Source: Fibrella musci
Lineage (GTDB): Bacteria; Bacteroidota; Bacteroidia; Cytophagales; Spirosomataceae
DNA length: 64,000 nt
Assembly (NCBI RefSeq): GCF_041321105.1
Contig: NZ_JBGGWD010000005.1
Coordinates: forward strand, 8,544-72,543
Reading direction: 5' to 3'
Positions within the stretch are counted from its first letter, which is position 1, and each line of letters opens with the position of its first letter. Made by a program: the position numbers and the translations under genes. Below are positions 7,305-32,694 of this stretch, piece after piece. The notes beneath the pieces are model-generated. The model worked only from the letters and a program-made list of their open reading frames with translations. It searched no databases and was not told the DNA's origin.

Positions 7305-10300
7305 TTAACTCCGACGGGACAGGTTCTGATAGTAACGAGTGATGCCATTGGGCCCAGCCTCTGACTCGGCAAAGCCGTTGCGGTCGATGTTAATGTTGAC
7401 CTGCTTCAACTGACGCAGTTGCTGACTCATCTGGTCCAACCGTTCTAAAAGCTGCTGATTCAGTTCCTGCTGCATGCTGACCGTTTCGGGGGCAACACCG
7501 GACGACAGTGCACTCGGCACCTGCATGGGGGGCAGGTAGATGTCCGTCCAGGGCCTGAGGATCGGCATGGTCAGTTGAGGCATCGACGGTGCCGGCAGCA
7601 GCAGGCGTTGTACCAGCTCGCGGTTAGTGACGTCGCCGTAGAGCCGACGGATGGCCGCGGACTCCTCGATGCTGAACACCCGTTCGCCTTTGGTGAGCCA
7701 CACTGGCACGGTATCGATCCCATCCGGATAGCGCGGGTCATCGACGTAATCCGTCCCCTTGGCGTATTTCTGACCCGTTTCCAGATCATAAGCGTCGGCG
7801 TAGTTAAAAAAGCCATTGACTGTTCTGCCCCCCGTATCAGTCGCGTAGCCGTCGATGGCTTCGGGCCGGTTGGCGTTGTAGAGCAGGTAGACCTTCCGTA
7901 CGCTCCCGTCAGGACGTTTGACGTAAATCTCACCCCGATAGCTCCCGTCACCCGTCCGCAGGCTATCGAGCACCGTGTTCATCTCCACCCAGTTCCCCCC
8001 ACTATCAAAGCCTGAACCCCGCACGGCGCCGTTGGCCGTGTAGGTACTGTTGCGATCAAACGACTTGCCACCTAACTCCCCGATGTAGGCGTTCAGTTCG
8101 TTAATCAGACCGCCGTTCCCGCCCCGCGCTTTCAATTTGGCGACCTCGATTTGCAGCTCAGTAATGGCCATATTTTTACGGGCATTGAACAGATTACGCT
8201 CCGCCTCGTAGGTTGCGTTGGCGTACTCGGTGTTGGCTAATCGACGTTGGTAGGCGGTGTTCACCTCATTATCCTTCAACTGGTTCTGGTACTTCAGAAT
8301 CGTTGCGGTCAGTTCGGCCTGAAGCGCTTCAATCTTGGTCTTGGTCTCCGTTTCCAGCGTCTTGATCCGGCTTTTCAGCTCCGTCTCTTTGGTTTCGTAG
8401 TCCGTGCGGTAGGTGTCGAGGGTTGTTTTAAGTTGGGTCTTCAGCGCCTCAGTTTCCTCCTTCTGGCGTTTTTCCAGTTCCAGTACCTTCTGAGTCTCCT
8501 CTTCCTTAAGTTTTTCGGTGAGGTCTTTCTCCTCCTCTTTAAGCTGCTTACTGACCAGTGTATTCGCCTTCGACTTGTCAAGCTTTGCATCCTCCACGTC
8601 TTTGTGGACCTGCTGAATCCGCTTCTCGTACTCATTAACGACGCGCGCCTTTTCGGCCTCATCGGTGAGGGTGGCGAGTATCCGATCACGCTGCGCAATC
8701 AGTTTATCAGTCTCTGTGGTGCGGTAGCGTTCGAGCGCCTCGTCACGCAGCCGGTCGATAATACCCGTGGCCTCCAACTCATCGGCCTTTGACTGTTCGA
8801 CCAACGATTTTCGATACTCATACGCATCACGCACCGCCTGTTTCTCGGCCTCATACCGGTCATTGATCTGTTGTAGGGCCCGGTCGTACTCCTCCTGGGC
8901 TAGATCACGCTTCTGATCGTAGGCATCCTTCAAGACCGCTAATTGGGCCTCGATGGCTTCCTTCTGTTTGTCCCGCTCCCCTTCGAGTAGCTCTTTCTGC
9001 TGCTCAAAGGCCTCTTTGGCTAAATCAATGGCTTTCTCGGTTCGGTCTTTCTCGGCTTCGTAGGCTTCTTCGATCTGCTTCAACCGCAATTCATGCACTT
9101 CCTTAAGCTCCGCCTTTTCCAACTCCAACTGTTCGATGCGCTCCCGCAGGCCCTTGGTTTGGTTGAAGCGACGCACCTCATCCAGCGTTTGCATGACCTT
9201 AGCCTCATCATCCATGTCTGAAGCCCTGATCTCGGCGATCTTCTGGATGAAGGCTAAATAATCATCCGTACGCCGTTGGTAGGCCGCTACTTCCTTCTCC
9301 TGCCGATAGAAGTTGCGCACCAGCTCAATCTGCTCATCATAGGTCCGTTCGGTCAGGGCAAGCTGCTCATCCAGATAATCCCGGTTTTGCTGACGGGAAG
9401 CCTTGTAGAACTCATCCAGAATGTCGCGGGTACGCCCGGCGGCTTCGGCGGTGGCCTGCCACTTGGCTCGTTCGGCCGCATTGAACATCTCGACCAGTTG
9501 GGTTACCAGTTGATAACCCATCGAAATCAGGCCCAACGTGGCCTGGGTCGAGGCGGTGGCGACTTGACTCACCGTTGCCTGATTGTCAGCCACGTTCTTC
9601 TTGGCCGCGGCCACGACCCCTTCCTGCGCCTTGATCTGCTGGGCATCGCCTGTTTTGTAGACCTCGAACAGCTTGGTCATCGCCCCCTCGTAAACCGATG
9701 TAGCGCCCTGTAAGTTGGCTTTGGCGACCTCTAGGGACTTACCCGACAGGGCATCCCAATCCGCGAACGTCTTCTTAGCTAGCCCGGCAATCGACCCCAT
9801 AAGCCCTGACTGCTGGGCCACCAGATCCACCACCAGGCCGAACACCTGTTTACGGCCTTCGATCTCATCGGCCATGTTCTTTTTCTTGATCTGGGCCGTT
9901 TCACGCTCGGCCTGCTCGATCTCCTGCTGCAACTCCCGGATGTCCTTTTTCCGCTCGGCGTTGGCCTCCTTTTCGGCTTTGAGTCGGGCCTGTTCCTGCT
10001 GCTTGCGGTCTTTGGTGGTCCACACCTGCAGGGCCGCAATGGCTTCCGCCGCTTCTTTTTCGATGCCCTGTTCCTGTTCCACCACATCCATCAGCACGTC
10101 GAGCTGATCCGCCCGTAGTTGGGCCCGCTTCTGTTCGTACTTCTCATGGATGGCAATCAACTGGGCCTTCACCGCCTCCTCAAATTGCTTTTCAACACCG
10201 AACGCGGCCTTCTTGGATACAATGCGTTTATTGGCCGCATCCATCTCAGCCCGCTCCTGCGCGGCCATCGCGGCCAGTTGCTGCTCATACGACCGGGCAA

Positions 10301-12866
10301 AATGACCTTTCATGAACGCTTCCCGGTCATGGGCGGCAAACACCTCAATCTCTTTGACTTTATCCGCTTCTGCTGTGGCCGTCGCGATGCGGGTCGTACT
10401 ACCCGTATCCTGCAACCGACTGAGGTTTTCTTCGTGGCGTTTTTTCTCGGCCAGCAGTTCAGCGCTCGAGCCTTTAGCGGCTTCCATGGCGTTCTGGTGG
10501 CGCGTCATCTCCGCATCCAGCATCGACTTGGTTTCCCCCTGACGCATCAGGTCGCGCCGTTGGGTGGATTCAAGGTTTTGCTTTTCCACCTCGCTGATGT
10601 TTTTCACCACGGTGCGCAGCGCCACAGTGGCCCCGCTGCCCATACCATGCCACAGGTCGTCCCACTGAGCGCGCATCCCGCCATTGAATTGCTTGGTGTA
10701 CTGGCTCGACTCATCCAGCGCTTTCAGTAGTTTGGCCGGATCCCCGTTGATCTGAATCAGCAACTCTTTGGGCAGTCGCTGCGCCGCCAGTTGCATGATT
10801 TCCTGTTCGGTTTTGTGCAACTCCCGTAGCCGGTCCCCATTGACTTCGACCCGGTAGGTTTCCCGCGCCAGCGCGATGCGATCCTGATACGATCGGTTCA
10901 CCTGCTTGAGCATCCTGTCAAGATCACCGTTGGACGTCTTCTCCGAGTTGATGCCGGCGAAGTATTCAGGGTATTTATTCACCAGATACTGAATCGCCAT
11001 GGCCCGCTCGACGGTGCCTTGCTTGGCTTGTTTGGCCAGCTCGACACTCTGGGTAATCAACCCGAGTTCCGTGCGGAGTTTGGTCTCCTGTTCGCCCACC
11101 GCATCGGTTACCTCGGTGGTGACCGCATCCCAGGCGGACATCGCTACCGTAATCGCCGTAACGGCCGTCAGTAAGGCCCCGATTGGATTGGCGACCACAA
11201 CGGCCCACAAAGAACGCCCCGCCACCGCCGAACGCACCTGAGCGGCGGTAAAGCCTTCGGTCGTACCGGCCATCGAAATCAGCGTCAGGTTGTAGGTGCC
11301 ACCAATGGCCACCGATGCCGCCCGGGTTACGTTGGCCGCCACCTCGGCAATCCTGGCCCGGTTAACGATAACCTCATACCCTGTCCAGGCGACAACGGCG
11401 GTACGTACCCACTTGGCCGTTCGGTCAATGGCCGAGTCGGATCCGGCCAGCACGTCGATCAAGTCACTCGTCCCGCCAATGACCTTTTGTAAACCATGCT
11501 GAACATAATCCCCCAGCCTCGCTTTGGCGAAAAAGAACTTGTCAGCCAGGTTAGACACCTGCCCGGCCATCGTTTCGGCCTGCATCTCCATCATGCGGTA
11601 GTAGCGGCCCCCTTCCGATGTGGCGTCTTGCAGGGCCTTCTTGACGTGGGCAAAACTGATCTCATGGGCTTCAGCCATCTTCACGACCTGATCGCGGGTT
11701 TTACCCATCGAAACGGCGAGCAAATCGTAAAGGGGTACGTTATTTTCGACCATTTGGTTAGTCTCAGCCTTGAAAAGGCGACCCTTGCTCATGATGTCGG
11801 TGTAGGCTTTGGCGACCAATGGCAGCTTTTCAGTACCCGCTACAGCGGCGATATCGCCCAGCATCTTGACCGTCGGAATCAACTCGGCCGTCGCTACCCC
11901 CATGGCTTTGAGGCGTCCGGTCACCGTCATTAGATCCTCCACCTGAAACGGGGTCGAAACGGCCAGCTTGGTCAACTCGATCATCAGTTGATCCGCCTGT
12001 TGTTTACTGCCCAACATCTGGGTCAGCCCCCCGGCGAAAATATCGACCTTCCCTTTGGCCTCGATTACCCCTTTCCCAAAGTCAAGGATCTCCTGCACCC
12101 CGAAAGCGGCCATAATCAGCGTACGGAGTTCACCATACACCTCCCGGTAGGCGCTGGGCTGACTGCGGATCAATTGGTTTTGCTGACCGATCTCCTGTCG
12201 TAACAGCGCGGTTTGGCGTAGCTGCTCCTGTCGAACGATGGCCGTCTGCTGATCCGCTTCCGCCTTGCGACCGATGGTCTGCTGTTGCAGTTCGGCGAGC
12301 AGCGCGGCCGTCTGCTGGTTGAGGTTATGCTTCTGGTCGGCCAGCTCCTGCGCCCGTAGCGCCTCGGCCTGCCGGGCCTGCTCCTTCAGGGCGGCATCAT
12401 ACTCAGCAGCCTGCCGGTTTAGCGCAGCCTTCAACTCGGTCAGTTCGGCGGCGTGATGAGCCTTCAAATCGGCTTCCTGTTTACGAAGCTCGGCCTCGCG
12501 TTCGGCCGTTAGCTCCTTGGCGAGTTCAGCCGCTAGCACCAGCCGTTCTTTTTCCGCGGTTTTGTAAGCAGTTGTCAAGCGATCTTCTGATTCTTTGAGT
12601 TGAATCAGTTGTCGATCCAGGGCGGCCTGCTTCTCGATGGTTTCCTGCCTGGCAACTTCTTTGGTGACGGCCAGTTGTTCGGCCGCCGCCGCCTTAGCCA
12701 GCGTGATCCCCTGCTGATAGGTTTGCTGGAGGGCACTGGCAGCTTTCTGGGCCACGGGTCCCTGCTCAGCTACCAATTGTTTAATGGCCTGAAGCTGCTC
12801 AATGGCTGAGGGTAATTCGGAGGCAACTGCGAATCGAAAGCGAATCGTCTGGTCGCGGTTTGACAT
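7305..12866 (-). CDS. Tape-measure-like giant coiled-coil protein (1853 aa)
   Basis: Residues ~230-560 resemble the phage tail tape-measure core, with long charged coiled-coil stretches. The ~300-aa C-terminal region is Gly/Asp/Tyr-rich and unassigned. Confidence 0.6.
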   Translation of the reverse strand: MSNRDQTIRFRFAVASELPSAIEQLQAIKQLVAEQGPVAQKAASALQQTYQQGITLAKAAAAEQLAVTKEVARQETIEKQAALDRQLIQLKESEDRLTTAYKTAEKERLVLAAELAKELTAEREAELRKQEADLKAHHAAELTELKAALNRQAAEYDAALKEQARQAEALRAQELADQKHNLNQQTAALLAELQQQTIGRKAEADQQTAIVRQEQLRQTALLRQEIGQQNQLIRSQPSAYREVYGELRTLIMAAFGVQEILDFGKGVIEAKGKVDIFAGGLTQMLGSKQQADQLMIELTKLAVSTPFQVEDLMTVTGRLKAMGVATAELIPTVKMLGDIAAVAGTEKLPLVAKAYTDIMSKGRLFKAETNQMVENNVPLYDLLAVSMGKTRDQVVKMAEAHEISFAHVKKALQDATSEGGRYYRMMEMQAETMAGQVSNLADKFFFAKARLGDYVQHGLQKVIGGTSDLIDVLAGSDSAIDRTAKWVRTAVVAWTGYEVIVNRARIAEVAANVTRAASVAIGGTYNLTLISMAGTTEGFTAAQVRSAVAGRSLWAVVVANPIGALLTAVTAITVAMSAWDAVTTEVTDAVGEQETKLRTELGLITQSVELAKQAKQGTVERAMAIQYLVNKYPEYFAGINSEKTSNGDLDRMLKQVNRSYQDRIALARETYRVEVNGDRLRELHKTEQEIMQLAAQRLPKELLIQINGDPAKLLKALDESSQYTKQFNGGMRAQWDDLWHGMGSGATVALRTVVKNISEVEKQNLESTQRRDLMRQGETKSMLDAEMTRHQNAMEAAKGSSAELLAEKKRHEENLSRLQDTGSTTRIATATAEADKVKEIEVFAAHDREAFMKGHFARSYEQQLAAMAAQERAEMDAANKRIVSKKAAFGVEKQFEEAVKAQLIAIHEKYEQKRAQLRADQLDVLMDVVEQEQGIEKEAAEAIAALQVWTTKDRKQQEQARLKAEKEANAERKKDIRELQQEIEQAERETAQIKKKNMADEIEGRKQVFGLVVDLVAQQSGLMGSIAGLAKKTFADWDALSGKSLEVAKANLQGATSVYEGAMTKLFEVYKTGDAQQIKAQEGVVAAAKKNVADNQATVSQVATASTQATLGLISMGYQLVTQLVEMFNAAERAKWQATAEAAGRTRDILDEFYKASRQQNRDYLDEQLALTERTYDEQIELVRNFYRQEKEVAAYQRRTDDYLAFIQKIAEIRASDMDDEAKVMQTLDEVRRFNQTKGLRERIEQLELEKAELKEVHELRLKQIEEAYEAEKDRTEKAIDLAKEAFEQQKELLEGERDKQKEAIEAQLAVLKDAYDQKRDLAQEEYDRALQQINDRYEAEKQAVRDAYEYRKSLVEQSKADELEATGIIDRLRDEALERYRTTETDKLIAQRDRILATLTDEAEKARVVNEYEKRIQQVHKDVEDAKLDKSKANTLVSKQLKEEEKDLTEKLKEEETQKVLELEKRQKEETEALKTQLKTTLDTYRTDYETKETELKSRIKTLETETKTKIEALQAELTATILKYQNQLKDNEVNTAYQRRLANTEYANATYEAERNLFNARKNMAITELQIEVAKLKARGGNGGLINELNAYIGELGGKSFDRNSTYTANGAVRGSGFDSGGNWVEMNTVLDSLRTGDGSYRGEIYVKRPDGSVRKVYLLYNANRPEAIDGYATDTGGRTVNGFFNYADAYDLETGQKYAKGTDYVDDPRYPDGIDTVPVWLTKGERVFSIEESAAIRRLYGDVTNRELVQRLLLPAPSMPQLTMPILRPWTDIYLPPMQVPSALSSGVAPETVSMQQELNQQLLERLDQMSQQLRQLKQVNINIDRNGFAESEAGPNGITRYYQNLSRRS

Positions 12867-13016
12867 AAATGAGGTCGTGAGATGGTGAGACCGAATTTAA
12901 CCTATTTGTTAATAACAATATTAACTTTCTAACTAATAATAATATTAACAAATACCTATTAATATATATGTCGACAATAAGGTTGAATAGGCGAAACGCA
13001 TTTGCAGTTATAGTCA

Positions 13017-14270
13017 ATGAAAAAAAATATATTAGCAATCAAATTTTACATTTGTACAACTACAAGAGGTTATAACATGCTAGAGAGTATCTGTATCAAA
13101 AGTGGACCAAATGATAATAGAATTGACTTTGGATTTTTATGTGAGTCAATTCTATTCTACGGAAAAGTAAGAGTAATTGTAGACTATAGGCGATTAAGAT
13201 ACTTATTCGACAGAATGAGTATCAGAGGGCTTGAGAGACTTATAAAACAAGGCAGAATCGAGGTTTTTATCGCAGAAAAGCATTTAGGTGCAATGACTTT
13301 TGGCGAAAACAAAAGCGATAAAAGATATGCGTTTGAAAGTATTCAAGGTGTAAATGATAATTACATAACAGAGTTGTATAAGGCTTTTGAACTTACCACA
13401 AAAGATATCAGAAAAAGTATCAAATTGACTAATGAATTCTGCGAAATTGTTAATCCTTTTAACTACTCGTCCTCATTGATTGAGTCTCTCAATGAAGATC
13501 TTGATAACAGAGAATATATAATTAACACTATGCATAGCTACATCAGTAGCAATTATCCGGAAGTAAGTATATCACCTTTTGACATCAATATAAATTTTAC
13601 TGTACACCCAGGTGAAGATGTCAAAAAAATGGCGGGATTTTCTAAAGAAAGTATTAGTGTTGAATCTAATTTACCAATAGACAAATTCCTCGAGTTAGAT
13701 CGCCGTCGAGGGTATGCAGGAACAGATTTTTACAGCGGTTATTTTCTGTCCCTATTAGAAACTGCCGGAGATATAGATACTGCAGCCCAATATTCGAGTG
13801 AAATAGCAACTAGAGAAATTTATTCAAATATGATTCGGTTCAAAGTTGAATCTTTATATATGAAGAATAAAAAAAGCACACAAGAGCTAGATGCTTTTAA
13901 TGAATATGTGATTAAAAATTGTCATTCTGTAGCTCAAGCCATTAATAGCTATAAGTTAAGTTTCTCAAAATTCATGAAAATTTTAGATACATCGGACAGA
14001 TTTAAAGGATGGTTAACTGAAAGTAATGATGATATTGGGTTAGTGGCAGAATATTACAAAGCCCTTAGTACAGACAACAGTATGTTTAGCAGCTTTCCAT
14101 TAAAACATATGAAGTTCATTTTTTTTGCGGCTGCAGGATTCTTTTTGACACCGATTCAAGGTATTGCATTAGGTGGGCTAGATTCCTTCTTCGTTGATAA
14201 GATAAAAAACGGCTGGAAACCCAATCAATTTGTTGACAATCAATTAAAGCCTAGTTTGCCGAAGAAATAA
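13017..14270 (+). CDS. Novel AT-rich cargo protein (417 aa) with a C-terminal hydrophobic segment
   Basis: Codon usage is very AT-rich compared with the flanks. No known motif. The tail FIFFAAAGFFLTPIQGIALGGLDSFFV is TM-like. An alternative start lies at M20. Confidence 0.5.
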   Translation: MKKNILAIKFYICTTTRGYNMLESICIKSGPNDNRIDFGFLCESILFYGKVRVIVDYRRLRYLFDRMSIRGLERLIKQGRIEVFIAEKHLGAMTFGENKSDKRYAFESIQGVNDNYITELYKAFELTTKDIRKSIKLTNEFCEIVNPFNYSSSLIESLNEDLDNREYIINTMHSYISSNYPEVSISPFDININFTVHPGEDVKKMAGFSKESISVESNLPIDKFLELDRRRGYAGTDFYSGYFLSLLETAGDIDTAAQYSSEIATREIYSNMIRFKVESLYMKNKKSTQELDAFNEYVIKNCHSVAQAINSYKLSFSKFMKILDTSDRFKGWLTESNDDIGLVAEYYKALSTDNSMFSSFPLKHMKFIFFAAAGFFLTPIQGIALGGLDSFFVDKIKNGWKPNQFVDNQLKPSLPKK

Positions 14271-14457
14271 AACAGTCTATGCCCAATTACCTTTACTTAT
14301 TTATTGATCCGTGAATAATTCTGTAAAGTAATCTACTGGTGGGCATAGGCAAATCATTCACAAACACATGAATAGCCAAGATTGACTTTACGAACTTATT
14401 CACGAGTCAACACCATTTTTTTATTTCCACTTTATTTATATCAATTGACATAATACT

Positions 14458-15537
14458 CTATATACCATTGAGAGAATTATTTATTTTCTCTTCTTGTTGG
14501 CCATCCCAAATATCATGTGATGAGCTATTTTCATCTCGTGAAATTGATAATAGGTTTTCCAAGTCTTTTGCACGAGTATATTGTTTATATTTGTCGTTTG
14601 GGGAAAAACGCAAGCTATAAAAATTAAATCGTAAAGCATATTTACTAAATTTTGTTATTGAGGCTTTGCCACCAAATGCTAGCATTAATTTTATTGTTTT
14701 ATCTGACAATTCGATTAAATCTGAGTTATTCACAAAAAGGCGAAATTGCTTCTTAAGCGGAAAGCCATTAGTGATTATACTACCTTGTTTCTGAAAATTA
14801 ACGCCTTTGTTATCATTTGTAAAATTGAGGCCAGTATCTTTTGCAATATTCTCAAATTCACCCAACGATGTAGTCAAGTTAATGTATATATCGCTGTCAT
14901 TTTCTCTGATACTACTGTTGAATATAGATGCTTCTAAAAGAATCTCTATCAATAGACTTTCATGCTGATCATGCATCTGGTATTGGACTACGCGTAAATA
15001 GCCTAATAATTCGGGTCGTCTAGTTTGTCTGAATAATGCCTCTACCACATAATGTGGTGCACCGATGCTCTGCCCATCCAGCCGTATTGGATATTCCTTT
15101 TTAAACTGATGAGGTTTGCTCTTACTTTCTTGTACCTCAATTAAATATACAAAATATCCATCGGTGAAATTAACAGCCGCTACTCTTATACCAACAGGCA
15201 TGTATGATATAGCTCCATGAATAAGATTGACTAATGCATCTTTTGTTTTAAGTGTAGTTGGAATAGGTGTGAGTTCACCCTTTACGACTCTGTATTTATC
15301 ATGTACTGCTACTTCAGATGGGGCACCAAATATCAATAATCCCCCTTCTGAGTTCAAGAAGGCAGTGATCGTGCGTAGAACACCATCAAAGTTAAAACCG
15401 CCATTTTTATCGGCAACAAAGCTCTTAAATTCCAAAGTGAGCGACTCTTCACGTGCCTGTGAGAAGTAATCAATCAGATCCTGACTGGTAATTTCTTCAT
15501 TCAATGATTTGCCAATATGGATTTCTGCAAATGACAT
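14458..15537 (-). CDS. AlbA_2 (Schlafen-like putative DNA-binding) domain protein with an unknown ~230-aa C-terminal domain
   Basis: N-terminal LTLEFKSF...GGLLIFG pattern typical of AlbA_2. AT-rich coding sequence. Confidence 0.55.
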   Translation of the reverse strand: MSFAEIHIGKSLNEEITSQDLIDYFSQAREESLTLEFKSFVADKNGGFNFDGVLRTITAFLNSEGGLLIFGAPSEVAVHDKYRVVKGELTPIPTTLKTKDALVNLIHGAISYMPVGIRVAAVNFTDGYFVYLIEVQESKSKPHQFKKEYPIRLDGQSIGAPHYVVEALFRQTRRPELLGYLRVVQYQMHDQHESLLIEILLEASIFNSSIRENDSDIYINLTTSLGEFENIAKDTGLNFTNDNKGVNFQKQGSIITNGFPLKKQFRLFVNNSDLIELSDKTIKLMLAFGGKASITKFSKYALRFNFYSLRFSPNDKYKQYTRAKDLENLLSISRDENSSSHDIWDGQQEEKINNSLNGI

Positions 15538-15569
15538 GGTTATATAATTTAATGTTTTTTGATAATTTG

Positions 15570-16937
15570 TTAGAGCAACGAGTCAAACGCAGCATCGACG
15601 GCACCTGACCCAAATGAATCTAGATAAATATTTGTCGTTGTCTCGTCTTTATGGCCCAGCGCCTGACCAATTACGGCGCTGGCATGACCAGCTCGCTTTA
15701 GATTAGTGGCAAATGAGTGCCTGGCTACATAAGTAGTCAATGGTGTTGCTAGGCCAATCGAGTCACTGATTGTCTTTAGATCCGTGTTTACTTGTCCCAG
15801 CACCTTGTGCAGCCGGTTCTTTACCTTATCGGCTGTTGAGTGGCTGGCTTTGTTCAGAATCGGAAAAATAAACGCATCCGGTCCGGTGTACGTCTCCCTT
15901 CGATATCGTTCAATTATGGACACAGCAGGAGCTATCAGCTTCAGCGAGAAATTACCGCCTGTCTTTTGCCGAACGTAGCTGATCCGGTAATTATCCTCTC
16001 CGGCTCGTTGTACGTCTTGCCAACGCAGTTGCGCCAGATCGACAAAGTTGATGCCGGCCACGAAGTAAGAGAACAAAAATACGTCCTTGGCCAGTTGCAT
16101 TCGCTCAGATTCCCGGCTTAGGCTGGCGTACTTGCCCGTTGGTCTAGCCGGCACTTCGTATTCTTCGACTTTGCGGATATCCTCCCGACTGACGGCCCGT
16201 TTCCTAGTCGAGGTATCGAATTTGCCGACACTAAATTTGCTTCGCTCCGCTACATTGCGGGCAAAGGGGTATTTGTCAGGCTTCATGGCCCCGTCAGCAA
16301 TGGCCCGGTTGAGCACCGTGCGCAAAACTCGAAACCGCTGGGACATGGTGTTCTCTGTATTACTTCGCTGCCGCAGGTAGGCCTCGAACTGGTTGCAAAA
16401 GGAAAGGTTCACCTGTTCAAAAGAGACGTCTGTGACTTGCTTTTGCTCGGTCAGAAACGAAGCCAGTTGTTTTTGTACATCGAGGTAGGTATCTGCCGTT
16501 CCATTGCGATGGGTAGCTCTGAGTGATTCGACCGTCTCTGTAAAGAAAGCTAGCAGTGTAGTGCGACGCGCCTGCTGCCTGCCTTCAATGGCTTTACTAA
16601 TAACCGCTGTTACATCGTGTCGCTCATCCGACTCAGTCAGCATAGCCGCTGCCTGGCTATATTTGTTTTCCCATTCGGCCAGTTTCTCGATCAGTTGAGT
16701 CCTGAATGGGGATGGATAGTTTTTTCGTATAGCCTCCCGATAGTTTGAGTGCTGGGCGTTCCAGTATTTGGGGTGCATAGTCAACCCAGTAGCAACATAT
16801 TTGGTCTTCCGGTCCTTCGTCACACGAAGCCAGAAAGGACACAGTCCTTCCTTATCCGCTTTATCCAGTCGGTACACGATCCGCACGGTGGCGCGGCCCT
16901 CTTTATGGCTGGTGGTACGTGGCATTTGATTTACCAA
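15570..16937 (-). CDS. int: Tyrosine site-specific integrase
   Basis: C-terminal catalytic region ARHSFATNLKRAGHASAVIGQALGHKDETTTNIYLD carries the R..H..R..Y signature. Confidence 0.85.
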   Translation of the reverse strand: MVNQMPRTTSHKEGRATVRIVYRLDKADKEGLCPFWLRVTKDRKTKYVATGLTMHPKYWNAQHSNYREAIRKNYPSPFRTQLIEKLAEWENKYSQAAAMLTESDERHDVTAVISKAIEGRQQARRTTLLAFFTETVESLRATHRNGTADTYLDVQKQLASFLTEQKQVTDVSFEQVNLSFCNQFEAYLRQRSNTENTMSQRFRVLRTVLNRAIADGAMKPDKYPFARNVAERSKFSVGKFDTSTRKRAVSREDIRKVEEYEVPARPTGKYASLSRESERMQLAKDVFLFSYFVAGINFVDLAQLRWQDVQRAGEDNYRISYVRQKTGGNFSLKLIAPAVSIIERYRRETYTGPDAFIFPILNKASHSTADKVKNRLHKVLGQVNTDLKTISDSIGLATPLTTYVARHSFATNLKRAGHASAVIGQALGHKDETTTNIYLDSFGSGAVDAAFDSLL

Positions 16938-17083
16938 AGCGGCTCAGGTAAAACGCTAGGTAAAACAAATATAGTAAAACAACGAGATACAGCCAGCTAC
17001 AACCAGAGCAACCGAAGTGTTTAAACTACTGCAAATCAACAATCTATATAAAATTCTGGATATAATAGAAAGTATATAGGCCC

Positions 17084-17124
17084 ATCCTTCTAAGAAGGCG
17101 GTCATAAGTTCGAATCCTATCGGG
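17084..17124 (+). repeat. Partial tRNA-Arg 3' segment (anticodon stem-loop, T-arm, acceptor 3' strand): att-like copy
   Basis: CCTTCTAAGAAGGCGGTCATAAGTTCGAATCCTATCGGGATC. Inverted copy of 17183-17228 with 2 mismatches. Confidence 0.55.
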
Positions 17125-17132
17125 ATCGCATA

Positions 17133-17178
17133 AAAAACAAAAAAGCCAGTCACCTGATTGGTTAACTGGCTGATTTTT
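17133..17178. terminator. Hairpin GCCAGT..ACTGGC flanked by A- and T-runs, at the centre of the tRNA-fragment palindrome
   Basis: AAAAAAGCCAGT-loop-ACTGGCTGATTTTT. Confidence 0.45.
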
Positions 17179-17182
17179 AGTG

Positions 17183-17262
17183 TGATCCCGATAGGATTCG
17201 AACCTATGACCGCCTTCTTAGAAGGAAGGTGCTCCCCTATTAAGCATTCATCCAAGCTGGGC
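17183..17262 (-). tRNA. tRNA-Arg(TCT)-like gene, possibly truncated or a pseudogene
   Basis: D-arm GCTT/GAGC. Anticodon stem CCTTC/GAAGG with loop CTTCTAA giving anticodon TCT. T-arm ATAGG-TTCGAAT-CCTAT. Acceptor 3' strand CGGGATC-A. I could not find a complementary 5' acceptor strand. Confidence 0.4.
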
Positions 17263-17522
17263 GAACTGCATCACCCTCGCAACCAGACAGATAAAATCGA
17301 TACGGCTGTGTTCTGCCGGGGAACGTACCTGAGTCGCTCATCAAGCGAGGAATACGCAAAGAATTGGGCTGGGTACGTCGACTCTGGCTTCAGCGTTAAC
17401 CAGTTGAGCCCTTAAGTCCCGCACCGCCGTTGGCATCGGGGCGGTGACTACGACTTTGTTCTCAGCCCGCTCGTCTTCTCCAGACGCGGAATCAGCTGAG
17501 TTTCGCATTCCGGTTTTCAGAC

Positions 17523-17556
17523 GAAAAGAGCCGCCCTGAGGGTGGCTCTTTTCGTT
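17523..17556. terminator. Intrinsic terminator-like hairpin GAAAAGAGCCGCCC/GGGTGGCTCTTTTC
   Basis: 14-bp stem that includes A/T tracts. No annotated gene reads into it. Confidence 0.4.
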
Positions 17557-17753
17557 AGGGGCAGGCGGCGCCCAATCGTTTCAACTGAGTTCTCGTTTGT
17601 GCCAGTTCAGACAGTACCCATGCCAATTGAACCTTCCTGTTCTTCGGCAGGGCTGAGGGGCCTCTCAACTTTGTGGCCGCCGGGTAAAACACGGTTCATA
17701 CAAACCGGCTCGTAACCCTGTCTGTCTTCCTCTTTTTAAACCGCATCAATGTC

Positions 17754-18974
17754 ATGTTTCGTTGTCCGAGTGTCCCCTCCTGTCTATTTCTCTTATTGAC
17801 GCTGCTCGCCTCTGCATTGGGTGGTTGCAAAAACGCCGCCACCGAGCCCGTCGACCCAACACAGCCCCCCGGCGGCGAGCCACCCCTCGAAAAACCCTTC
17901 ACGGCCATTCCCGACGAATTTGTGGGTACGTGGTACGCCTATCACAATCAAGGCCCACTAACCGACAACTGGACCAACGGTACTTTCCAGGGCGAACAGG
18001 GTTTTCGCGAGTTCCGTACTATGGTCTTCACCGGCGACGGCCGTAACGCCGTAGAGTACACCTCTCAGGTCTACAACTACGGCGATGAGACGTTGCAGAT
18101 CATCTACAAGGTCACAGGTACGTTGGTGTACAAAGCCAGTCCCGCTTCGATCACGTTCCACGCCCAGACGGGGATCCGGCGGACGTTTAGTAACAAGTAT
18201 TCGGGCTACAAAGACGCCTCGATAATTGCCAAGGACCTAAAGGACTACCAGATTGTCTGGGAGAATCCGCAGGCCACCAACATGTCGTCGATGACCAACT
18301 ACCTGACGACCACAATTATCGACCAGTCCGGACGGTATGCGAGTAAATACCAGAAACTAGGCGCAGGCAACCAGACGCCGACCACGGGCCTACCCTCGAC
18401 TACGCCCATCACCACCGGTACGTCGGTAAAAATCGGAAACCTGTATTACCCCACCGTTACGATTGGCAATCAGGAGTGGCTGGCCACTAACTATGCCGGT
18501 CCGGGTAGCCTGACTGAGCGCAACAAACCGCAGTACGGCACCTTCCTGGAATACGCCGATCTGGCAAAAATTCAACTGCCCGCGGGTTGGCGAATTCCCA
18601 GTCGGCAAGACTACACCCAGTTGCTCGAATCCCAGGGGTTGACCGTGTATGACTGGGGCACCAACGGCGAAGATGTTCCCTCGAAACGCATGTTGGGCCA
18701 GCTCATGGCCACCGACGCCTGGACCAAGAAAGACGGGTACGCCAACAACAAATCGGGTTTCAACGCCATGCCCGCCGACGTGCGCCGGCCCAAGGGTGTC
18801 AACCACGGCGAAGGCACGAACTGCACCCTGTGGATATCCGATCGAAATAGTTCAGATAACCCTATGTCGTTCAACATTATTCAGCTGCCCGGCGACACCT
18901 ACGCCACATTTGGCGAGCAGGTTCTGGGTTATGCCCCCGTGCTTATCCCACTTCGCCTCGTCCGGAATAAATAG
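17754..18974 (+). CDS. Lipoprotein with a C-terminal domain I take to be the Fibrobacter major paralogous domain
   Basis: Signal with LGGC lipobox. C-terminal GWRIPSRQDY...GFNAMPA pattern. Confidence 0.6.
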   Translation: MFRCPSVPSCLFLLLTLLASALGGCKNAATEPVDPTQPPGGEPPLEKPFTAIPDEFVGTWYAYHNQGPLTDNWTNGTFQGEQGFREFRTMVFTGDGRNAVEYTSQVYNYGDETLQIIYKVTGTLVYKASPASITFHAQTGIRRTFSNKYSGYKDASIIAKDLKDYQIVWENPQATNMSSMTNYLTTTIIDQSGRYASKYQKLGAGNQTPTTGLPSTTPITTGTSVKIGNLYYPTVTIGNQEWLATNYAGPGSLTERNKPQYGTFLEYADLAKIQLPAGWRIPSRQDYTQLLESQGLTVYDWGTNGEDVPSKRMLGQLMATDAWTKKDGYANNKSGFNAMPADVRRPKGVNHGEGTNCTLWISDRNSSDNPMSFNIIQLPGDTYATFGEQVLGYAPVLIPLRLVRNK

Positions 18975-19151
18975 AGCTGCGGCTTCCCCCGGCCAGATCG
19001 GCATCTGGCGACTCCGTATCCGGCGGGTAACGTACCTGCCGCCCGGCTCAGTACCTAAAGAACCGACCTGCCCCAGGCCTTGAGTCGGGTCGGTTCTACT
19101 GCCTCATCCACACCCCAATAAGATTCATCCATCCTCTTTTTTCATACCCAA

Positions 19152-19706
19152 ATGACAACTACTCGACTGTTGAACAGCCTTTTTCAGCCTCCTGTGCGCC
19201 GTTGTGCTGCCGGACTCCTGTCGATTGGCCTCTTGGCGTGCTCTTCCCCGGAAACGGCCCCGGCAACGGGCAACAACTACCTCAAGGTGACGCTCAACGG
19301 CCAGACCAAAACCTACACAAACGTCAAACTCGACGAAGAGGCCGTGGCTGGTTCGCTCCGCGTCTGGACCGTAGAAGGCAGAACCAGCGACGACGACTTT
19401 TTGTCCATGTCGTTCTGGGGAACCGGCACGGGCACTTACCCTTATAAGCCAACGGTCGATGCCTTCAAGCAGGTTAGTCAGATCGAATACCGAACCAAAA
19501 ACGGAATGCTGGCCAGTTATGCCGCCCTGGTTTGCCCCGACAACGCGGGTTATTATGCCCCACAGGGCCGCGTCGGAGTCACCCAGTATACCAATGGCAA
19601 AGCCGTTACCGGCACCTTCAGCGGGGCGTTGATGAGCGATCAGGACGCCGACAACTGCAACAAGCAGGGCACGCCCTTCAGCGGCGAATTTTCTATCCGT
19701 CAATAA
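19152..19706 (+). CDS. Lipoprotein (184 aa)
   Basis: Signal with LLAC lipobox. The antisense ORF 19125-19844 is probably a shadow of this gene. Confidence 0.5.
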   Translation: MTTTRLLNSLFQPPVRRCAAGLLSIGLLACSSPETAPATGNNYLKVTLNGQTKTYTNVKLDEEAVAGSLRVWTVEGRTSDDDFLSMSFWGTGTGTYPYKPTVDAFKQVSQIEYRTKNGMLASYAALVCPDNAGYYAPQGRVGVTQYTNGKAVTGTFSGALMSDQDADNCNKQGTPFSGEFSIRQ

Positions 19707-19831
19707 CGCCCGATTCATAACCAATCTATTCAACCACGAACCCATTTCTGGCTCACCACGAACCGATAACCGGCGAGGGTGATCATCCAGGGCATCATCC
19801 TGGAGGTGGGTATCTGGCCAGCCACACAACA

Positions 19832-20482
19832 ATGAATACTTCACTCATAACAAGTCAGATGACCTCGCTAAAGGGGATTTACTGGTGTTTGATCTGCGCA
19901 CTCCTGACGGCCGCCTGCCAGTCAACACCCGGCATAATCGAGCCACCGACCCCATCGCCTGACTCGGTTCGCATCGATGGTCATACCTACCCGACCCGGC
20001 TTATTGGCGCTCAGCGCTGGACCACCATCAATTACCGGGGACCGGGCGGTATTCCGTATGGCACTGGCACCGAAAAGCCGATCTACGGCCGCTATTACAC
20101 CTATGCTGAAGCCAAGGCGATTGCCCTGCCCGCAGGCTGGCGCTTGCCTACAGAGGCCGACTGGGTAACGCTGGTGCAAAGTCAGGGCATTATTCTGGAA
20201 CAGAACACGGCCAGGAAGCAGGAAGCGGTCAAAAAGCTGCTGTCGGTAACCAATTGGCGTAGTCTGCCGGGCACCAATGCCTCAGGATTCAACGCGCACC
20301 CTGCCGGCTACAGCACCAACAACCTTCCGCCCGAAGATGGCGATATCGCCGAGTTCTGGGCTGCGGGTGGCGTGTCGATGAGCATTCAGGAAAATAGCCA
20401 GGCTAATCACCTGCTGCGCTTCTACAGCAACGACAACGACCCGTCGGTCCGCTACACGCTCCGTTTTGTCTCCGATCGGTAA
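19832..20482 (+). CDS. Secreted protein with the same Fibrobacter-paralogous-like domain
   Basis: GWRLPTEADWVTLV...GFNAHPAGY; paralog of the 17754-18974 C-terminus. Confidence 0.6.
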   Translation: MNTSLITSQMTSLKGIYWCLICALLTAACQSTPGIIEPPTPSPDSVRIDGHTYPTRLIGAQRWTTINYRGPGGIPYGTGTEKPIYGRYYTYAEAKAIALPAGWRLPTEADWVTLVQSQGIILEQNTARKQEAVKKLLSVTNWRSLPGTNASGFNAHPAGYSTNNLPPEDGDIAEFWAAGGVSMSIQENSQANHLLRFYSNDNDPSVRYTLRFVSDR

Positions 20483-21899
20483 GGTCAATACAATGCTATC
20501 TCTCTACTCGAATCTTCCTTACATTATGTTTTTCTCCCTCCTCCGTAAAACGGGTTATGCCCTTGGCCTGCTCGGGCTGGCACTCGCCTGCAAACCGGGC
20601 CCCGACCCGATCGCACCCCCTCAGCCGCCGAAACCCGGCGTACCCACCGCTGTAGGCAAACCAATAGGTGCGGTCATCAGCAAAACCATCGGCCCCGCGG
20701 GTGGCACGCTCAGCAGCGCCGACGGTACCATGACCCTGCGTTTTCCTGCCGGAGCGCTAACCAAAGAAACGCTGATCACCGCTCAGCCCGTCGAAAACAC
20801 GGCGTTTGGCGGGGCTGGCGTGGGCTACGAATTTGGCCCCCACGGTACGCAGTTTGCCAAGCCCGTAACGCTAAGCTGGACCTACAAAGACAGTGACCTG
20901 CACGGCTCCTCGCCCGAGGCACTGGGCATTGCCGTCCAGGACGATAACCACATCTGGCGGGGACATACCAGCCTATTTGTCGAGGCCGATCAGCGGCGGG
21001 TTGTTGCGCCAATTTATCATTTCAGCCGGTATTCGTTCTACGAGAATTTTTGGATGGAGCCCATGCAGCAAACCCTGGCGCCTAACGAAACGGTAACGCT
21101 TAAAGTCTTCTACCAGGAGAATCACGGCCTGTACGAATCAAAGGGTTCAGAGGTGGTTCAGGAGCCAACACCTTGTAAACCGACGTCAGAAACAGAAGTA
21201 ACCCAGTGTTTAGGTGCCGATTTATTGACGCCGCTGACTTCTCCGGTGGAACTCTTGAAAGCGGATCAGGTAAAGAACTGGCGGGTAAACGGGCAGGACG
21301 TAACGGGTACCATTGAATCGCCAATTGGCTTTCTAAGCTATCACCAAGGTCAGTCAGTCATTTATAAGGCACCCGTCAGAGCGCCGGAGGCCAATCCCGT
21401 GGCCGTTAGTGTCGAGATTATCACACCGGGAAAAGGGAAACTGATGCTGGTTAGCAACCTGACCATCGAATCGCCCAATGAGCTGTACATCAACGGAGCC
21501 AAACAACCCAACGCGTACGCTAACGCCAATGTCGCCGAACTAGGCGCCTTTATTTTTGTAGGTCCGGAGCCCTACAAAAACGGTAACCAGAAACAGACTG
21601 GTGTTGCCATATCTTTTTCAGGAATTGGTGGTACCGGAACATTCACGCTTAGCAAGGAAATTGAAGGCAGGTTTTCAATGACCGCCATAGGACCGGATGG
21701 GCTAAACTATTCAGGGAGTTATGCGCCCCGACCAAACGGAGGTATCGTATACGGACCCGGCAGCGTGACGATTACCGAATTCAACTCCGCCAAAGAGCTC
21801 ATCGCTGGTTCATTCACGGCTACGCTTCATTATCAGGATCTGGAAAACAAAAGATACAAGTCAATGCAGGTCAAGGGGCGGTTCCGAACCGGAGGCTGA
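20466..21899 (+). CDS. Lipoprotein (477 aa)
   Basis: Signal with LALAC lipobox. No other motif recognised. Confidence 0.5.
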   Translation: MSPIGKVNTMLSLYSNLPYIMFFSLLRKTGYALGLLGLALACKPGPDPIAPPQPPKPGVPTAVGKPIGAVISKTIGPAGGTLSSADGTMTLRFPAGALTKETLITAQPVENTAFGGAGVGYEFGPHGTQFAKPVTLSWTYKDSDLHGSSPEALGIAVQDDNHIWRGHTSLFVEADQRRVVAPIYHFSRYSFYENFWMEPMQQTLAPNETVTLKVFYQENHGLYESKGSEVVQEPTPCKPTSETEVTQCLGADLLTPLTSPVELLKADQVKNWRVNGQDVTGTIESPIGFLSYHQGQSVIYKAPVRAPEANPVAVSVEIITPGKGKLMLVSNLTIESPNELYINGAKQPNAYANANVAELGAFIFVGPEPYKNGNQKQTGVAISFSGIGGTGTFTLSKEIEGRFSMTAIGPDGLNYSGSYAPRPNGGIVYGPGSVTITEFNSAKELIAGSFTATLHYQDLENKRYKSMQVKGRFRTGG

Positions 21900-21955
21900 G
21901 TACTTCAGGCGGGTTTCCCCACCGGGCAGCCAATTGTTTGTGTGTCCTTTCAGAA

Positions 21956-22023
21956 GGATATAGCCGAGGAGGCAGCTAGCGGGGTGTGAAGCGCCCTGGC
22001 TAGCTGCCTCCTCGGCTATATCC
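21956..22023. repeat. Perfect 25-bp inverted repeat with an 18-nt loop
   Basis: GGATATAGCCGAGGAGGCAGCTAGC...GCTAGCTGCCTCCTCGGCTATATCC, 57 nt after the stop of the preceding gene and without a T-run. Confidence 0.6.
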
Positions 22024-22446
22024 GTGTCTACCAAGCTGATAACAACCTCACTATCAACTGTTCGTTTTGGATCAGGTACGTTGTTCATGGTTAACGCCAC
22101 CCAAGGCCAATTCTTAACGCACTCTTACCCGCTCTATCGAAAAGTCATGAGTCAGACCGTCAGGTACGTCTGCTGGCAGCGGTAGTTCATCGAGGGTTGT
22201 CGGCACGCCTGTTACTCAGGTGAGCGCGAAGGCCAGACGAAAAACCACCCGGCTGCGTAAGCCGTGAAAAAACGTGCGGACTAGGCAACCTTACTACCCA
22301 TCGACCATAACAGAAACAGCCCGTGCTCAACGACAGACATCATTGAGCACGGGCTGTTGGATAATACGCTCAATCCGCTGGTTACGGTCAGCTTTGCAGG
22401 AACGAGCGTTTTCGGTAATCGGGCCGAAACCAGGTTGAACCAGCTG

Positions 22447-23781
22447 TTACTTCAGGGCTATTTCGATCACCGAATTAATATGCTGCCCTTCGCTTTCAGT
22501 ACGGGAATTCTGCGGATCGGTGAACCACTGGCCATCCACAATAAATTTGTAAGCGACCTTGCCGGGTTCCACCTCGATGTCGCTAACCCAGGCGTTGCCC
22601 TTCCGAACGAGGCGGTTAGTCTGCGAGCTCCAGTTGTTGAATGACCCGGCAACATAGACCGCTTTAGCGTCGGCAAAGCCTTTTAGCGCAAACGTATGGA
22701 CAACGTAGCGCGGCGGCTGACTCCTCAGTTCTGCAGCAATTCCCTGAAGCGCCTGCCGCCAATCGGGGGCCAGTGTGGTTTGCTTAGCCAACGCCCCAAG
22801 CGCCATAAGCTGAGCGGCATACAAGGCGCGATTGGCCGAAACAAGCGTATCGGGGGCCACGCCTACGCCCTCCCAGTTGGTGTGGGTTATGGGGTTGATG
22901 GCCCGGCCGTGGGGCACAAACAGGGCAAAATGGTCATTGACGCGCATTGTCTCGCCCGGATTGGCGCCGCCCTTGGTAGTGTCGCCCACAAGGGTGGCCC
23001 GCTTCAGGTTTTTGAGGTCGTAGGCCAGCTCCTCTGCTCCCGAGAACGTTTGTCGGCTGGTGAGGATATAGATGGGCTTTTTGCCGTAGTGACGACCCGA
23101 GACCTGGGCGTAGGTCCACGACTGAACAGTGCGATTACCCGTGCGCCAGTAAAAATCGTTGAGGTGCGTCGGCTCGTCGAAGAAATAGCTGCACAGCATC
23201 GGAATGGCGTGCTCCGACATGGCCCCGTGGCACTGCCGCAGATCGATGATCAGGGCATCGGTCCGGGCCAGGTAGTTCAAGGCGGCACTGTACGATTCAC
23301 CGGCAAACTCCGGCGGAGCAAGGTATTTGAAATTAATGTACCCCAGGTTCCCTTTCAGCACCGACACCCCCAGAATTCCGAAGTTTTCGCGGCGTAGCCC
23401 TTCCTGCATATAGCTTTTCTGCTGCTGCATCTCGGCGGGGGATAAGTCTTTTTGCCACAGTTGCTCCTGGGGAACGCCCTCCGGGAAATACGTCATGTGC
23501 ACGTGTTGATCGTGACAGATGCTTTGCAGGTCAGCGGTTAGTTGGCGGGCCAGCTGATAGCCGTCAGTCAGGGCCTCATAACTACGCAGCCGATCATGGA
23601 TGTGGCGTTCCATCTGCGCGGCGACTTCCGGAAAAACATACTGTTCGTTAAGGAGCCGGGTGGCGGCCTGGGCAGTTTGCCGAGCTTCGGCGGGTGCGAG
23701 GGCGGTCTGTCGGGTCGACTGGGCTACCGACGGGGCACTCACGGCTAAGAGGGCCCACAAGGGAAATAGGGATGGTCGCAT
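22447..23781 (-). CDS. S41 family C-terminal processing peptidase with a C-terminal CBM48/AMPK-beta-like glycogen-binding domain
   Basis: TSRQTFSGAEELAYDLK active-site region. C-terminal ...VYVAGSFNNW...KFIVDGQW... Start chosen at MRPSLFPLWALLAVSAPSVAQ (signal peptide) rather than the longer ORF start at 23970. Confidence 0.7.
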   Translation of the reverse strand: MRPSLFPLWALLAVSAPSVAQSTRQTALAPAEARQTAQAATRLLNEQYVFPEVAAQMERHIHDRLRSYEALTDGYQLARQLTADLQSICHDQHVHMTYFPEGVPQEQLWQKDLSPAEMQQQKSYMQEGLRRENFGILGVSVLKGNLGYINFKYLAPPEFAGESYSAALNYLARTDALIIDLRQCHGAMSEHAIPMLCSYFFDEPTHLNDFYWRTGNRTVQSWTYAQVSGRHYGKKPIYILTSRQTFSGAEELAYDLKNLKRATLVGDTTKGGANPGETMRVNDHFALFVPHGRAINPITHTNWEGVGVAPDTLVSANRALYAAQLMALGALAKQTTLAPDWRQALQGIAAELRSQPPRYVVHTFALKGFADAKAVYVAGSFNNWSSQTNRLVRKGNAWVSDIEVEPGKVAYKFIVDGQWFTDPQNSRTESEGQHINSVIEIALK

Positions 23782-24140
23782 GGGGAGTCGTATTGATTGG
23801 TGAATAAACCAAAGTTGGCTTGAGCTAGCCGCCCCCCCAATCGTCTGATGCATGGGCTGTCGATCTGCCTGCCCCAATTGCGTTGAAGACCGAGCGAACT
23901 GTTGCCCGAGCGACATTGACAGTTCGCGCCAGTCGACAGCGACGACTCGTATGATAAGTGCCGCACGCAACTGCCCCCCGACGGCAACTGGGCCGCGCCA
24001 TACAATGCATACACGTATTTAGACAATTCACTCGTAAAACCTGCCAATTGATACGGTCCTGGCACGACAGCCTGCGCGGAATAAACTATGTTTGACCAAC
24101 GTAAGGAAGCCGAAAGCCTCGCTCCATACCGCCCTACCCC

Positions 24141-26304: not shown

Positions 26305-26322
26305 ACCAGTTGTTTTGGCCCT

Positions 26323-26366
26323 GTTCAGCACCGGGCTTGTTGAGTAACAAACCCGGTGCTGAACAG
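26323..26366. terminator. 22-bp hairpin with a 4-nt loop between the aldo/keto reductase stop and the AraC start
   Basis: CCTGTTCAGCACCGGGCTTGTT-GAGT-AACAAACCCGGTGCTGAACAGG, with one G-T pair. Confidence 0.55.
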
Positions 26367-26379
26367 GCTAACCACTCTA

Positions 26380-27399: not shown

Positions 27400-27579
27400 C
27401 CGATTGGTTATTTCCGCAACAAAGGTCCAGCCCCACGGGCCGCGGCGGCCTATACAAACCGGAGGTTCTACAACACAAAACGAGGCAGCCCATTACAGAC
27501 TGCCTCGTTTTGGTGTATGCTGGATTGGGCCCTTAACAGGTAGCCAATCGTTATTTACCCGCGATCGTAGTGCCTGGAC

Positions 27580-27822
27580 CTACCACGATGCCCACTGTGT
27601 GTAGTAGCCGTAGCTGCTGCGGGCCGCCGAATCGGACATGGCGACGCCGGTACGTACCTGATCGATGGTGCCGCTAAACCGGGCCAGCCCGTTCAGGGGC
27701 AGATCATTGGGTACGTTGCCTTTCTGGCGTGGATACTGGGCAATTGAGTCAAACAAGTCCTGAAGGTATGCTTCGTCGTCAATGCCATCTAAGGGGAGGA
27801 GTTCGTCGTTCATCGAAGCCAT
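27580..27822 (-). CDS. Small hypothetical protein (80 aa)
   Basis: ORF only; acidic N-terminus. Confidence 0.3.
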   Translation of the reverse strand: MASMNDELLPLDGIDDEAYLQDLFDSIAQYPRQKGNVPNDLPLNGLARFSGTIDQVRTGVAMSDSAARSSYGYYTQWASW

Positions 27823-27896
27823 AATCGAGCCTATTTAGTGGTTTGAGGGCACGCTGCTACCTTATAAGCACCATTTCCCTAAAGCTTACTGCCTTC

Positions 27897-29561: not shown

Positions 29562-29656
29562 TCGGGGCGTATTAATTGACTGGATGTGCCGGATTGAGGG
29601 GCCAGCTTAACTATCGACAAGATACGGCATCCGGCTGAGGAAAACGCCCTATTCGG

Positions 29657-32670: not shown

Positions 32671-32694
32671 CGCACCAAAAAACAAAACCATCCC

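Follow-up and report, generated by a model that had tools for sequence, protein, structure and literature searches.

In the tRNA-gene attachment (att) sites of elements with tyrosine integrases, the integrase gene adjoins a 3′ tRNA fragment whose start falls within the anticodon stem-loop, the interval between that gene and the core contains arm-type repeats, the host terminator is kept, and the empty site is found in a relative. The locus described here, which lies in a 64,000-nucleotide stretch of the Fibrella musci genome (hereafter the window), resembles such sites in each of these respects, although its arm-type repeats are putative. It differs from them in that the host carries a second, inverted core just past the terminator, a feature that is absent from normal att sites.

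Two further kinds of system resemble the locus in part. Duplicated tRNA genes of which one has become a pseudogene are like it in that one copy is canonical and the other has lost either the 5′ acceptor strand, as in the window, or the 5′ two-thirds, as in Fibrella aestuarina BUZ 2 and a Fibrella-like contig (L024). Here, by contrast, the duplicates are convergent and have one terminator in common rather than lying in tandem, and the full length of the second copy is putative. The other comparison is with inverted repeats that evolve in concert. According to one report, template switching turns imperfect inverted repeats into perfect ones and lengthens their arms (PMC5941160), and homogenization and expansion of such arms by this route are described in three others (PMC13100816, PMC8794818, and PMC8604942). 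As in the literature on quasipalindrome correction (PMC5941160, PMC8794818, and PMC13100816), the arms at this locus are centered on a pre-existing hairpin, resemble each other within a genome more than they resemble their orthologues, and vary in length by lineage. They are, however, far longer than the short inverted repeats studied there, with 28-56 nt of tRNA sequence in addition to the hairpin, and conversion is a putative process here. Moreover, because one arm represents a present or former functional tRNA gene, conversion at this locus should be directional.

The Quasi-palindrome and Its Hairpin

A quasi-palindrome of 148 bp at positions 17082-17229 was found to consist of a hairpin flanked by two inverted 3′ segments of tRNA-Arg(TCT), in good agreement with the palindrome of ∼140 bp around a hairpin that had been described from the sequence alone. 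A repeat search placed the inverted arms at 17082-17137 and 17174-17229 (56 nt, 91% complementary) and the stem of the inner hairpin at 17139-17150/17165-17176. Each strand of the window contained a single occurrence of a 35-nt tRNA pattern, for which 100 shuffles gave an expectation of 0, and folding of a 156-nt region as single-stranded DNA yielded −64.4 kcal/mol (z = −16.8 versus shuffles). The arms are not identical. The tRNA part differs at two positions, as had been claimed, with A/G in the T stem at 17106 and G/A at the discriminator at 17128, and these two mismatches are accompanied by an offset in the hairpin.

ARAGORN called no tRNA gene in the whole 64-kb window, so that the predictor check suggested by the sequence-only reading returned no canonical full tRNA. 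The Rfam tRNA model matched only 17191-17245 on the minus strand (model positions 10-63, 39.3 bits), with the acceptor stem absent; a complete cloverleaf, as expected of a functional tRNA-Arg UCU, was detected in the window by neither program. Matches to the Rfam family MIR6459, a plant microRNA precursor, were obtained for 17092-17219 on both strands (57 and 55 bits, with a gathering score of 100) and were discarded as false positives arising from the long hairpin. A palindrome scan of viral contigs gave no matches.

The hairpin at the palindrome center (17131-17180) has A/T runs on both sides and has homologues directly after tRNA-Arg(TCT) in 16 relatives. Beside it, TTTTTTGTTTTTT is visible in the minus sense and TGATTTTTAG in the plus sense. 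On the strength of its sequence features, this hairpin is probably a bidirectional terminator. Like known bidirectional intrinsic terminators, it has an A run and a T run and lies between a protein gene and a tRNA gene. Unlike them, its stem is lengthened by tRNA-derived sequence, and the terminator is a putative one, the palindrome hairpin having gone uncalled in a simple consensus terminator scan. Its orientation was compared with that in other genomes (contigs L024 and L011) and is hard to read from a near-symmetric structure, for which reason an early alignment that made the terminator native to the minus-strand copy was withdrawn. The loop, TGATT in the window versus TTAATT/TTATTT in L024/L011, if anything favors the plus sense.

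The Plus-strand Fragment and the Adjoining Element

The proximal arm (17082-17130, plus strand) comprises the 3′ part of tRNA-Arg(TCT) from the anticodon stem to the discriminator and forms the integrase-side att junction. BLAST aligned positions 31-73 of the family tRNA with 17085-17127 at 93% identity, bearing out the earlier description of the plus-strand piece as a tRNA 3′ fragment; the T stem contains a mismatch (ATAAG/CCTAT). Identity to the tRNA begins at position 30/31, and the same boundary is present in Spirosoma fluviale (contig L020) and F. aestuarina (contig L001), the fragment of F. aestuarina BUZ 2 beginning at tRNA position 30. In S. fluviale, a 53%-identical integrase reads away from a plus-sense fragment that has TCCTTCTAAGAAGG as its start and the native terminator behind it, and no inverted copy was found at this junction. 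A boundary in the anticodon stem-loop is therefore common to three related but distinct elements (those of the window, L020, and L001). Taken together, these alignments locate the junction boundary at position 30/31 with confidence, and the plus-strand fragment has the appearance of a standard integrase-proximal junction. A search of the whole window for a third copy of the tRNA piece found none.

The gene for a tyrosine integrase of the Bacteroidota type (15570-16925, minus strand; Pfam Arm-DNA-bind_5, Phage_int_SAM_5, and Phage_integrase) lies ∼160 nt from the plus-strand tRNA fragment and reads away from it into the element. Integrases of the Arm-DNA-bind_5/SAM_5 type represent the NBU1/NBU2 and CTnDOT-like enzyme family. 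The protein matches the site-specific integrase of Fibrella sp. WM1/F. musci at 100% identity and has relatives of 50-65% identity in Spirosoma, Larkinella, Fibrella, and Hymenobacter. Back-translated integrase patterns retrieved no close relatives from the genome and viral contig collections, and only generic tRNA-Arg matches came from the E. coli, plasmid, and phage collections. Between the integrase gene and the fragment, at 16946-16980 on the plus strand, AGGTAAAAC is present twice and is followed by AGTAAAAC; in the window, AGGTAAAAC occurs at 16946 and 16958 only (0.43 expected). Paired short direct repeats are also found between the integrase gene and the tRNA fragment in L020 (GGTTGAAAC twice) and L001 (GGTACAAC twice), and such repeats are probable arm-type integrase-binding sites.

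Judged by its gene content, the block to the left of the integrase is best described as a phage-like integrative element, and the genes to the right of the palindrome are ordinary chromosomal ones. To the left are found low-GC cargo, an AlbA_2/Schlafen protein, an 1853-residue protein with a tape-measure domain, a replication initiator, and a primase-helicase. The low-GC block (13000-15540, 32-38%) adjoins the integrase gene and contains the AlbA_2/Schlafen gene (14458-15537, minus strand) and a gene for an unassigned 417-residue protein (13017-14270, plus strand), the products of which are possibly defense cargo of the element. The gene for the 1853-residue protein (7305-12866, minus strand) lies among non-structural genes, namely those for the replication initiator, the primase-helicase, and an astacin-like peptidase. 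Capsid and terminase genes were not seen in the part of the element that falls within the window; the element may be a prophage or another phage-like element.

The Minus-strand Copy

The distal arm (17181-17245, minus strand) is a tRNA-Arg(TCT) pseudogene that covers positions 10-76 and consists of the D, anticodon, and T arms and the 3′ acceptor strand. The three arms had been recognized in the sequence-only reading and are recovered by the Rfam model; the tRNA-like part had, however, been drawn too far, to 17262, and ends at 17245 (tRNA position 10). BLAST revealed 94% identity to positions 23-75 of the family tRNA. Both the anticodon arm (CCTTC/CTTCTAA/GAAGG, anticodon TCT) and the T arm (ATAGG/TTCGAAT/CCTAT) are intact. 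The D loop departs from the family consensus. Upstream of 17245, where the sequence reads TTGGATGAAT, there is no GATCCCG or GGTCCCG that would pair with the 3′ strand CGGGATC, which agrees with the earlier observation that this copy has no 5′ acceptor strand. When artificial GGTCCCGTA was placed in front of the distal arm, restoring 9 nt, ARAGORN called tRNA-Arg(tct). A D-arm-like piece just upstream of 17245 was marginal (233/5000 shuffles) and was rejected. The earlier suggestion of a pseudogene that arose through successive events is upheld for the minus-strand copy.

The Syntenic Locus in Related Genomes

The genes for RtcB, Band_7, WYL, M28 peptidase, aldo-keto reductase (AKR), and AraC proteins in F. 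aestuarina BUZ 2 are collinear with positions 25387-34230 of the window, and the WYL-M28-AKR-AraC block is collinear in all three genomes compared (window, BUZ 2, and L024, the last being a Logan contig from the short-read data set SRR13325294 of a Fibrella-like genome). Protein identity between the window and BUZ 2 is 95% for AKR and 92% for the AraC-family regulator (WP_370699315; 25387-26331, minus strand), which serves as the synteny anchor and is 95% identical to its L024 counterpart. In BUZ 2, a different element with a 50%-identical integrase lies beside the same tail-to-tail structure, the order being a plus-sense T arm and acceptor piece, a perfect 20-bp hairpin, and an inverted fragment running from the anticodon to the 3′ end. 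This element is >10 kb in length, its far end not being reached within 10 kb of the integrase gene, and its cargo includes a type I restriction-modification system.

In L024, the order is AraC stop codon, GGTTCCTTGGTTCGAATCCAAGCGGGATCACA, hairpin, and reverse complement of tRNA-Arg(TCT), and the tRNA runs unbroken across the position-30/31 boundary into a canonical D arm (ATAGAGCATCTTCC...). The contig ends in the D loop, up to which point the empty-site tRNA is seen. In both BUZ 2 and L024, the distal tRNA fragment directly abuts the AraC stop codon. L024 reads as an unoccupied site in which the palindrome is already present, and the comparison establishes, at the level of sequence, that the palindrome is older than the integration. 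Because the same arrangement occurs at the syntenic BUZ 2 locus and beside the att-uninterrupted tRNA in L024, the minus-strand copy is assigned to the host, as a feature that precedes the integration event. The idea that the minus-strand copy was the target of the integrase does not survive this comparison, given the BUZ 2 synteny and the L024 empty site.

A tRNA scan of genomes identified 16 intact tRNA-Arg(TCT) genes in Spirosoma, Rudanella, and Arsenicibacter, which have their 5′ two-thirds in common and in every case precede a hairpin terminator, and one fragment besides, that of S. fluviale (L020). An inverted copy was present at none of the 17 non-Fibrella tRNA-Arg(TCT) loci (Spirosomataceae), which makes the palindrome a feature of the Fibrella lineage. 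F. arboris, F. rubiginis, and F. aquatilis are without the M28-AKR-AraC synteny and provided no further states of the locus.

Several side observations concern integration at tRNA genes in these bacteria. tRNA-Arg(TCT) is an integration hot spot in Spirosoma species (L006, L007, L011-L014, and L020), and many of the “intact” Spirosoma tRNA-Arg(TCT) genes have paired arm-type repeats (GGTACAAC or GGTTGAAAC) after the terminator. In S. fluviale, an intact tRNA with arm-type repeats is carried by one contig (L013), and the integrase with its fragment is on another (L020). The L020 fragment is itself followed by GGTACAAC repeats, an order that suggests elements in tandem. In Fibrella sp. USSR17 (L002, 3790-3860) and HMF5335 (L004, 3770-3850), 54%-identical integrases lie beside a tRNA-Val(TAC) 3′ fragment and terminator, in the same orientation as in the window and with no inverted copy; it follows that the integrase family has switched its target tRNA. 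A second tail-to-tail tRNA arrangement occurs in other Bacteroidota. Two metagenome contigs (L022, 246-500, and L023, 4-283) each carry an intact tRNA-Lys(TTT) with its terminator and, behind these, 21-22 nt of the tRNA 3′ end repeated in inverted orientation, with identity beginning in the T loop. This piece precedes a conserved unit of ∼120 nt that an 11-nt inverted repeat (AATCCCAGCGG) closes, and a truncated integrase is found in L023 ∼0.9 kb from the tail-to-tail tRNA-Lys.

Likeness of the Two Arms within Each Genome

The tRNA parts of the two arms were found to be identical at 44/46 positions in WM1, about 48/48 in BUZ 2, and 28/28 in L024. Identity between arms is thus 96-100% within genomes, while 5 of 28 positions are different in orthologous arms. 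The differences between genomes consist of two T-stem base pairs (ATAGG/CCTAT versus CTTGG/CCAAG) and one acceptor position, and in all three genomes the non-functional arm carries the variant of its own genome. The flanking 5.3 kb are 87-88% identical, and the three genomes are equidistant. Since paralogous arms are closer to each other than orthologous arms are, the sequences provide clear evidence that the arms evolve in concert. An unconstrained 30-nt relic would not track its partner, so the arms must be either homogenized or selected to pair. For homogenization, we infer that the route is gene conversion or replication template switching at the hairpin. With three genomes, the likeness of the arms fits gene conversion and selection for pairing equally.

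This behavior, in which a non-functional tRNA arm of 30-65 nt follows the species-specific sequence of its partner over genomes that have diverged by ∼12%, is the sole feature of the locus that is of some wider interest. It makes the locus a compact natural case of concerted evolution in a palindrome centered on a terminator.

The 8-kb Segment and a Candidate 5′ End of the Distal Copy

A segment of 8 kb (17246-25243) is found in this genome only and is missing between AraC and the palindrome in BUZ 2 and L024. It encodes Fib_succ_major-domain lipoproteins, an S41 peptidase, and a LytS-type histidine kinase. Gene-content analysis of 17246-25243 revealed no recombinase gene, and neither terminal inverted or direct repeats nor arm-type repeats were detected there; the GC content is 0.558 versus 0.577 for the host. 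As the three genomes are equidistant, the 8-kb difference may reflect either an insertion or a deletion.

The distal arm consists of the T arm and acceptor strand only in BUZ 2 and L024 and of positions 10-76 in the window. A candidate for the 5′ end of the latter lies at the far side of the 8-kb segment, where GGTCCCGTAGCT (25244-25255, minus strand) exactly matches family tRNA-Arg(TCT) positions 1-12, is oriented like the distal copy, and overlaps it by GCT (3 nt). It corresponds exactly to the part that the distal copy lacks. Of 200,000 shuffles of the 159-nt boundary region, 74 yielded a shared 12-mer by chance. Over the entire window, the match was not significant (BLAST E = 0.2), and another chance 12-mer is present at 11178-11189. 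No Bacteroidota-type −7 box precedes the 12-mer. It sits just past the conserved end of the kinase, most of the best 150 homologues stopping at query residue 362-369. As for the kinase itself (24141-25277), its C-terminal tail of 14-16 residues is missing from most of these best 150 homologues, and the tail (25233-25277, plus strand) is read through the antisense of the 12-nt tRNA 5′ piece. A degenerate tRNA remnant sought right behind the AraC stop in this genome was not significant (592/5000 shuffles) and was dropped.

These matches would be accounted for if a full-length, convergent second tRNA-Arg gene had been split at the D stem by an 8-kb insertion. The chances for and against such a split seem evenly balanced, given that the segment has no recombinase, no terminal repeats, and a host-like GC content, that no promoter box stands before the 12-mer, and that the three genomes have a star-like relationship. 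The divergent D loop of the distal copy also calls for extra decay or a divergent paralogue and counts against the duplicate account. A full-length ancestry of the distal copy is what we infer.

Origin of the Palindrome

The arrangement is probably explained by an ordinary integration scar and an older inverted tRNA duplicate, predating the element, that meet at one terminator hairpin. In the history that we propose, the minus-strand copy would be the leftover of an older inverted duplicate, placed tail-to-tail across the common hairpin before integration in the Fibrella lineage. The phage-like integrative element below ∼17084 would then have recombined inside the anticodon stem-loop of the host tRNA-Arg(UCU), leaving the 3′ 46 nt of the host and the terminator at the integrase end, and an intact tRNA would presumably have been rebuilt with the copy carried by the element at its far end, to the left of the window. 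Gene conversion within the palindrome, or replication template switching, would presumably keep the arms alike. The redundant copy would have decayed differently in each lineage, being trimmed to the T arm and acceptor strand behind the AraC stop in BUZ 2 and L024 and split at the D stem by the 8-kb insertion in this genome. That simple integration cannot yield an inverted pair, as the sequence-only reading pointed out, holds true, but because the inverted copy would be older host DNA, the apparent exception to the direct-repeat rule is explained, and the rule stands. The mirror-image tRNA-Arg site is odd in appearance, yet it is the product of ordinary processes.

Other origins were weighed against this history. 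Two opposing integrations might have produced the mirror image, the distal copy then being the att scar of an 8-kb element (17246-25243) in a convergent tRNA-Arg gene. The segment is indeed specific to this genome, is flanked by directly oriented tRNA pieces (positions 1-12 and 10-76), and lies at a tRNA that is an integration hot spot of the family. Its want of a recombinase and of arm-type or terminal repeats and its host-like GC content argue in the other direction, as does an overlap of just 3 nt that falls in the D stem rather than at the position-30/31 boundary of the integrase family; BUZ 2 and L024, moreover, carry the inverted fragment without any such segment. We regard a double integration as unlikely. 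An unusual att architecture, the other possibility raised in the sequence-only reading, would have the integrase make or need the inverted copy, for example by reversed-alignment recombination at the anticodon (CCTTCTAAGAAGG) or the T loop (TTCGAA). Near-perfect palindromes do exist within the core, and a tail-to-tail tRNA-Lys fragment lies beside a decayed integrase in L023. IntDOT-like enzymes, furthermore, tolerate heterology in the overlap region. A reversed alignment, however, predicts a center at the anticodon or T loop, whereas the palindrome is in fact centered on the terminator loop, toward which both 3′ ends point. The plus-strand boundary at 30/31 is the standard one, as in L020 and L001; the L024 palindrome stands beside a tRNA that is unbroken at the junction point of the element family, and the related element at the same tRNA in L020 has no inverted copy. 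This explanation, largely refuted by L024 and L020, is very improbable.

Selection provides a different account of the same likeness between arms. The inverted arm might be kept for pairing, with the stem of ∼50 bp separating the tRNA from the convergent AraC (or kinase-side) transcript, either as an insulator or as a terminator that works in both directions. Five positions co-vary between the arms over the three genomes, the arm begins right at the AraC stop in BUZ 2 and L024, and the predicted fold is very stable. The same co-variation is, however, predicted by gene conversion, 16 related genomes have the short hairpin alone, the arm is no longer behind AraC in this genome, and the simple terminator scan did not call the hairpin; selection for pairing is accordingly a doubtful explanation. 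There is likewise a small chance that the palindrome is a maintained functional structure of Fibrella, either a cruciform or a long-hairpin terminator, with the second, inverted att core (positions 28-76, complete here) serving as a decoy or an alternative recombination partner. Were this so, recombination between the inverted cores could let the integrase invert either the 56-bp terminator spacer or the entire element. A false palindrome created in assembly must also be considered, palindromic joins being a known type of assembly error. The structure is internal to a 723-kb contig, though, and recurs in the complete BUZ 2 genome and the independent short-read contig L024 with species-specific sequence in each, and its arms are non-identical, with two mismatches and the hairpin offset. 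An artifact is extremely improbable.

The integration scar beside an older duplicate, which remains the preferred reading, carries a caution for programs that call the boundaries of islands or prophages from tRNA fragments, as a decayed inverted tRNA copy can be mistaken for the end of an element.

Other Features of the Window

A candidate YrlA-like bacterial Y RNA was identified at 30973-31096 on the plus strand (Rfam RF02553; 43.5 bits, below the gathering score of 69), the tRNA-like domain of which (31041-31092) matches the Rfam tRNA model at 30.4 bits. It is located between the gene for a WYL/WCX regulator (29657-30706, minus strand) and those for Band_7 and RtcB (31443-34230, plus strand). 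A second low-GC block extends from 53000 to 58000, with 39-45% GC versus about 57% in the surroundings.
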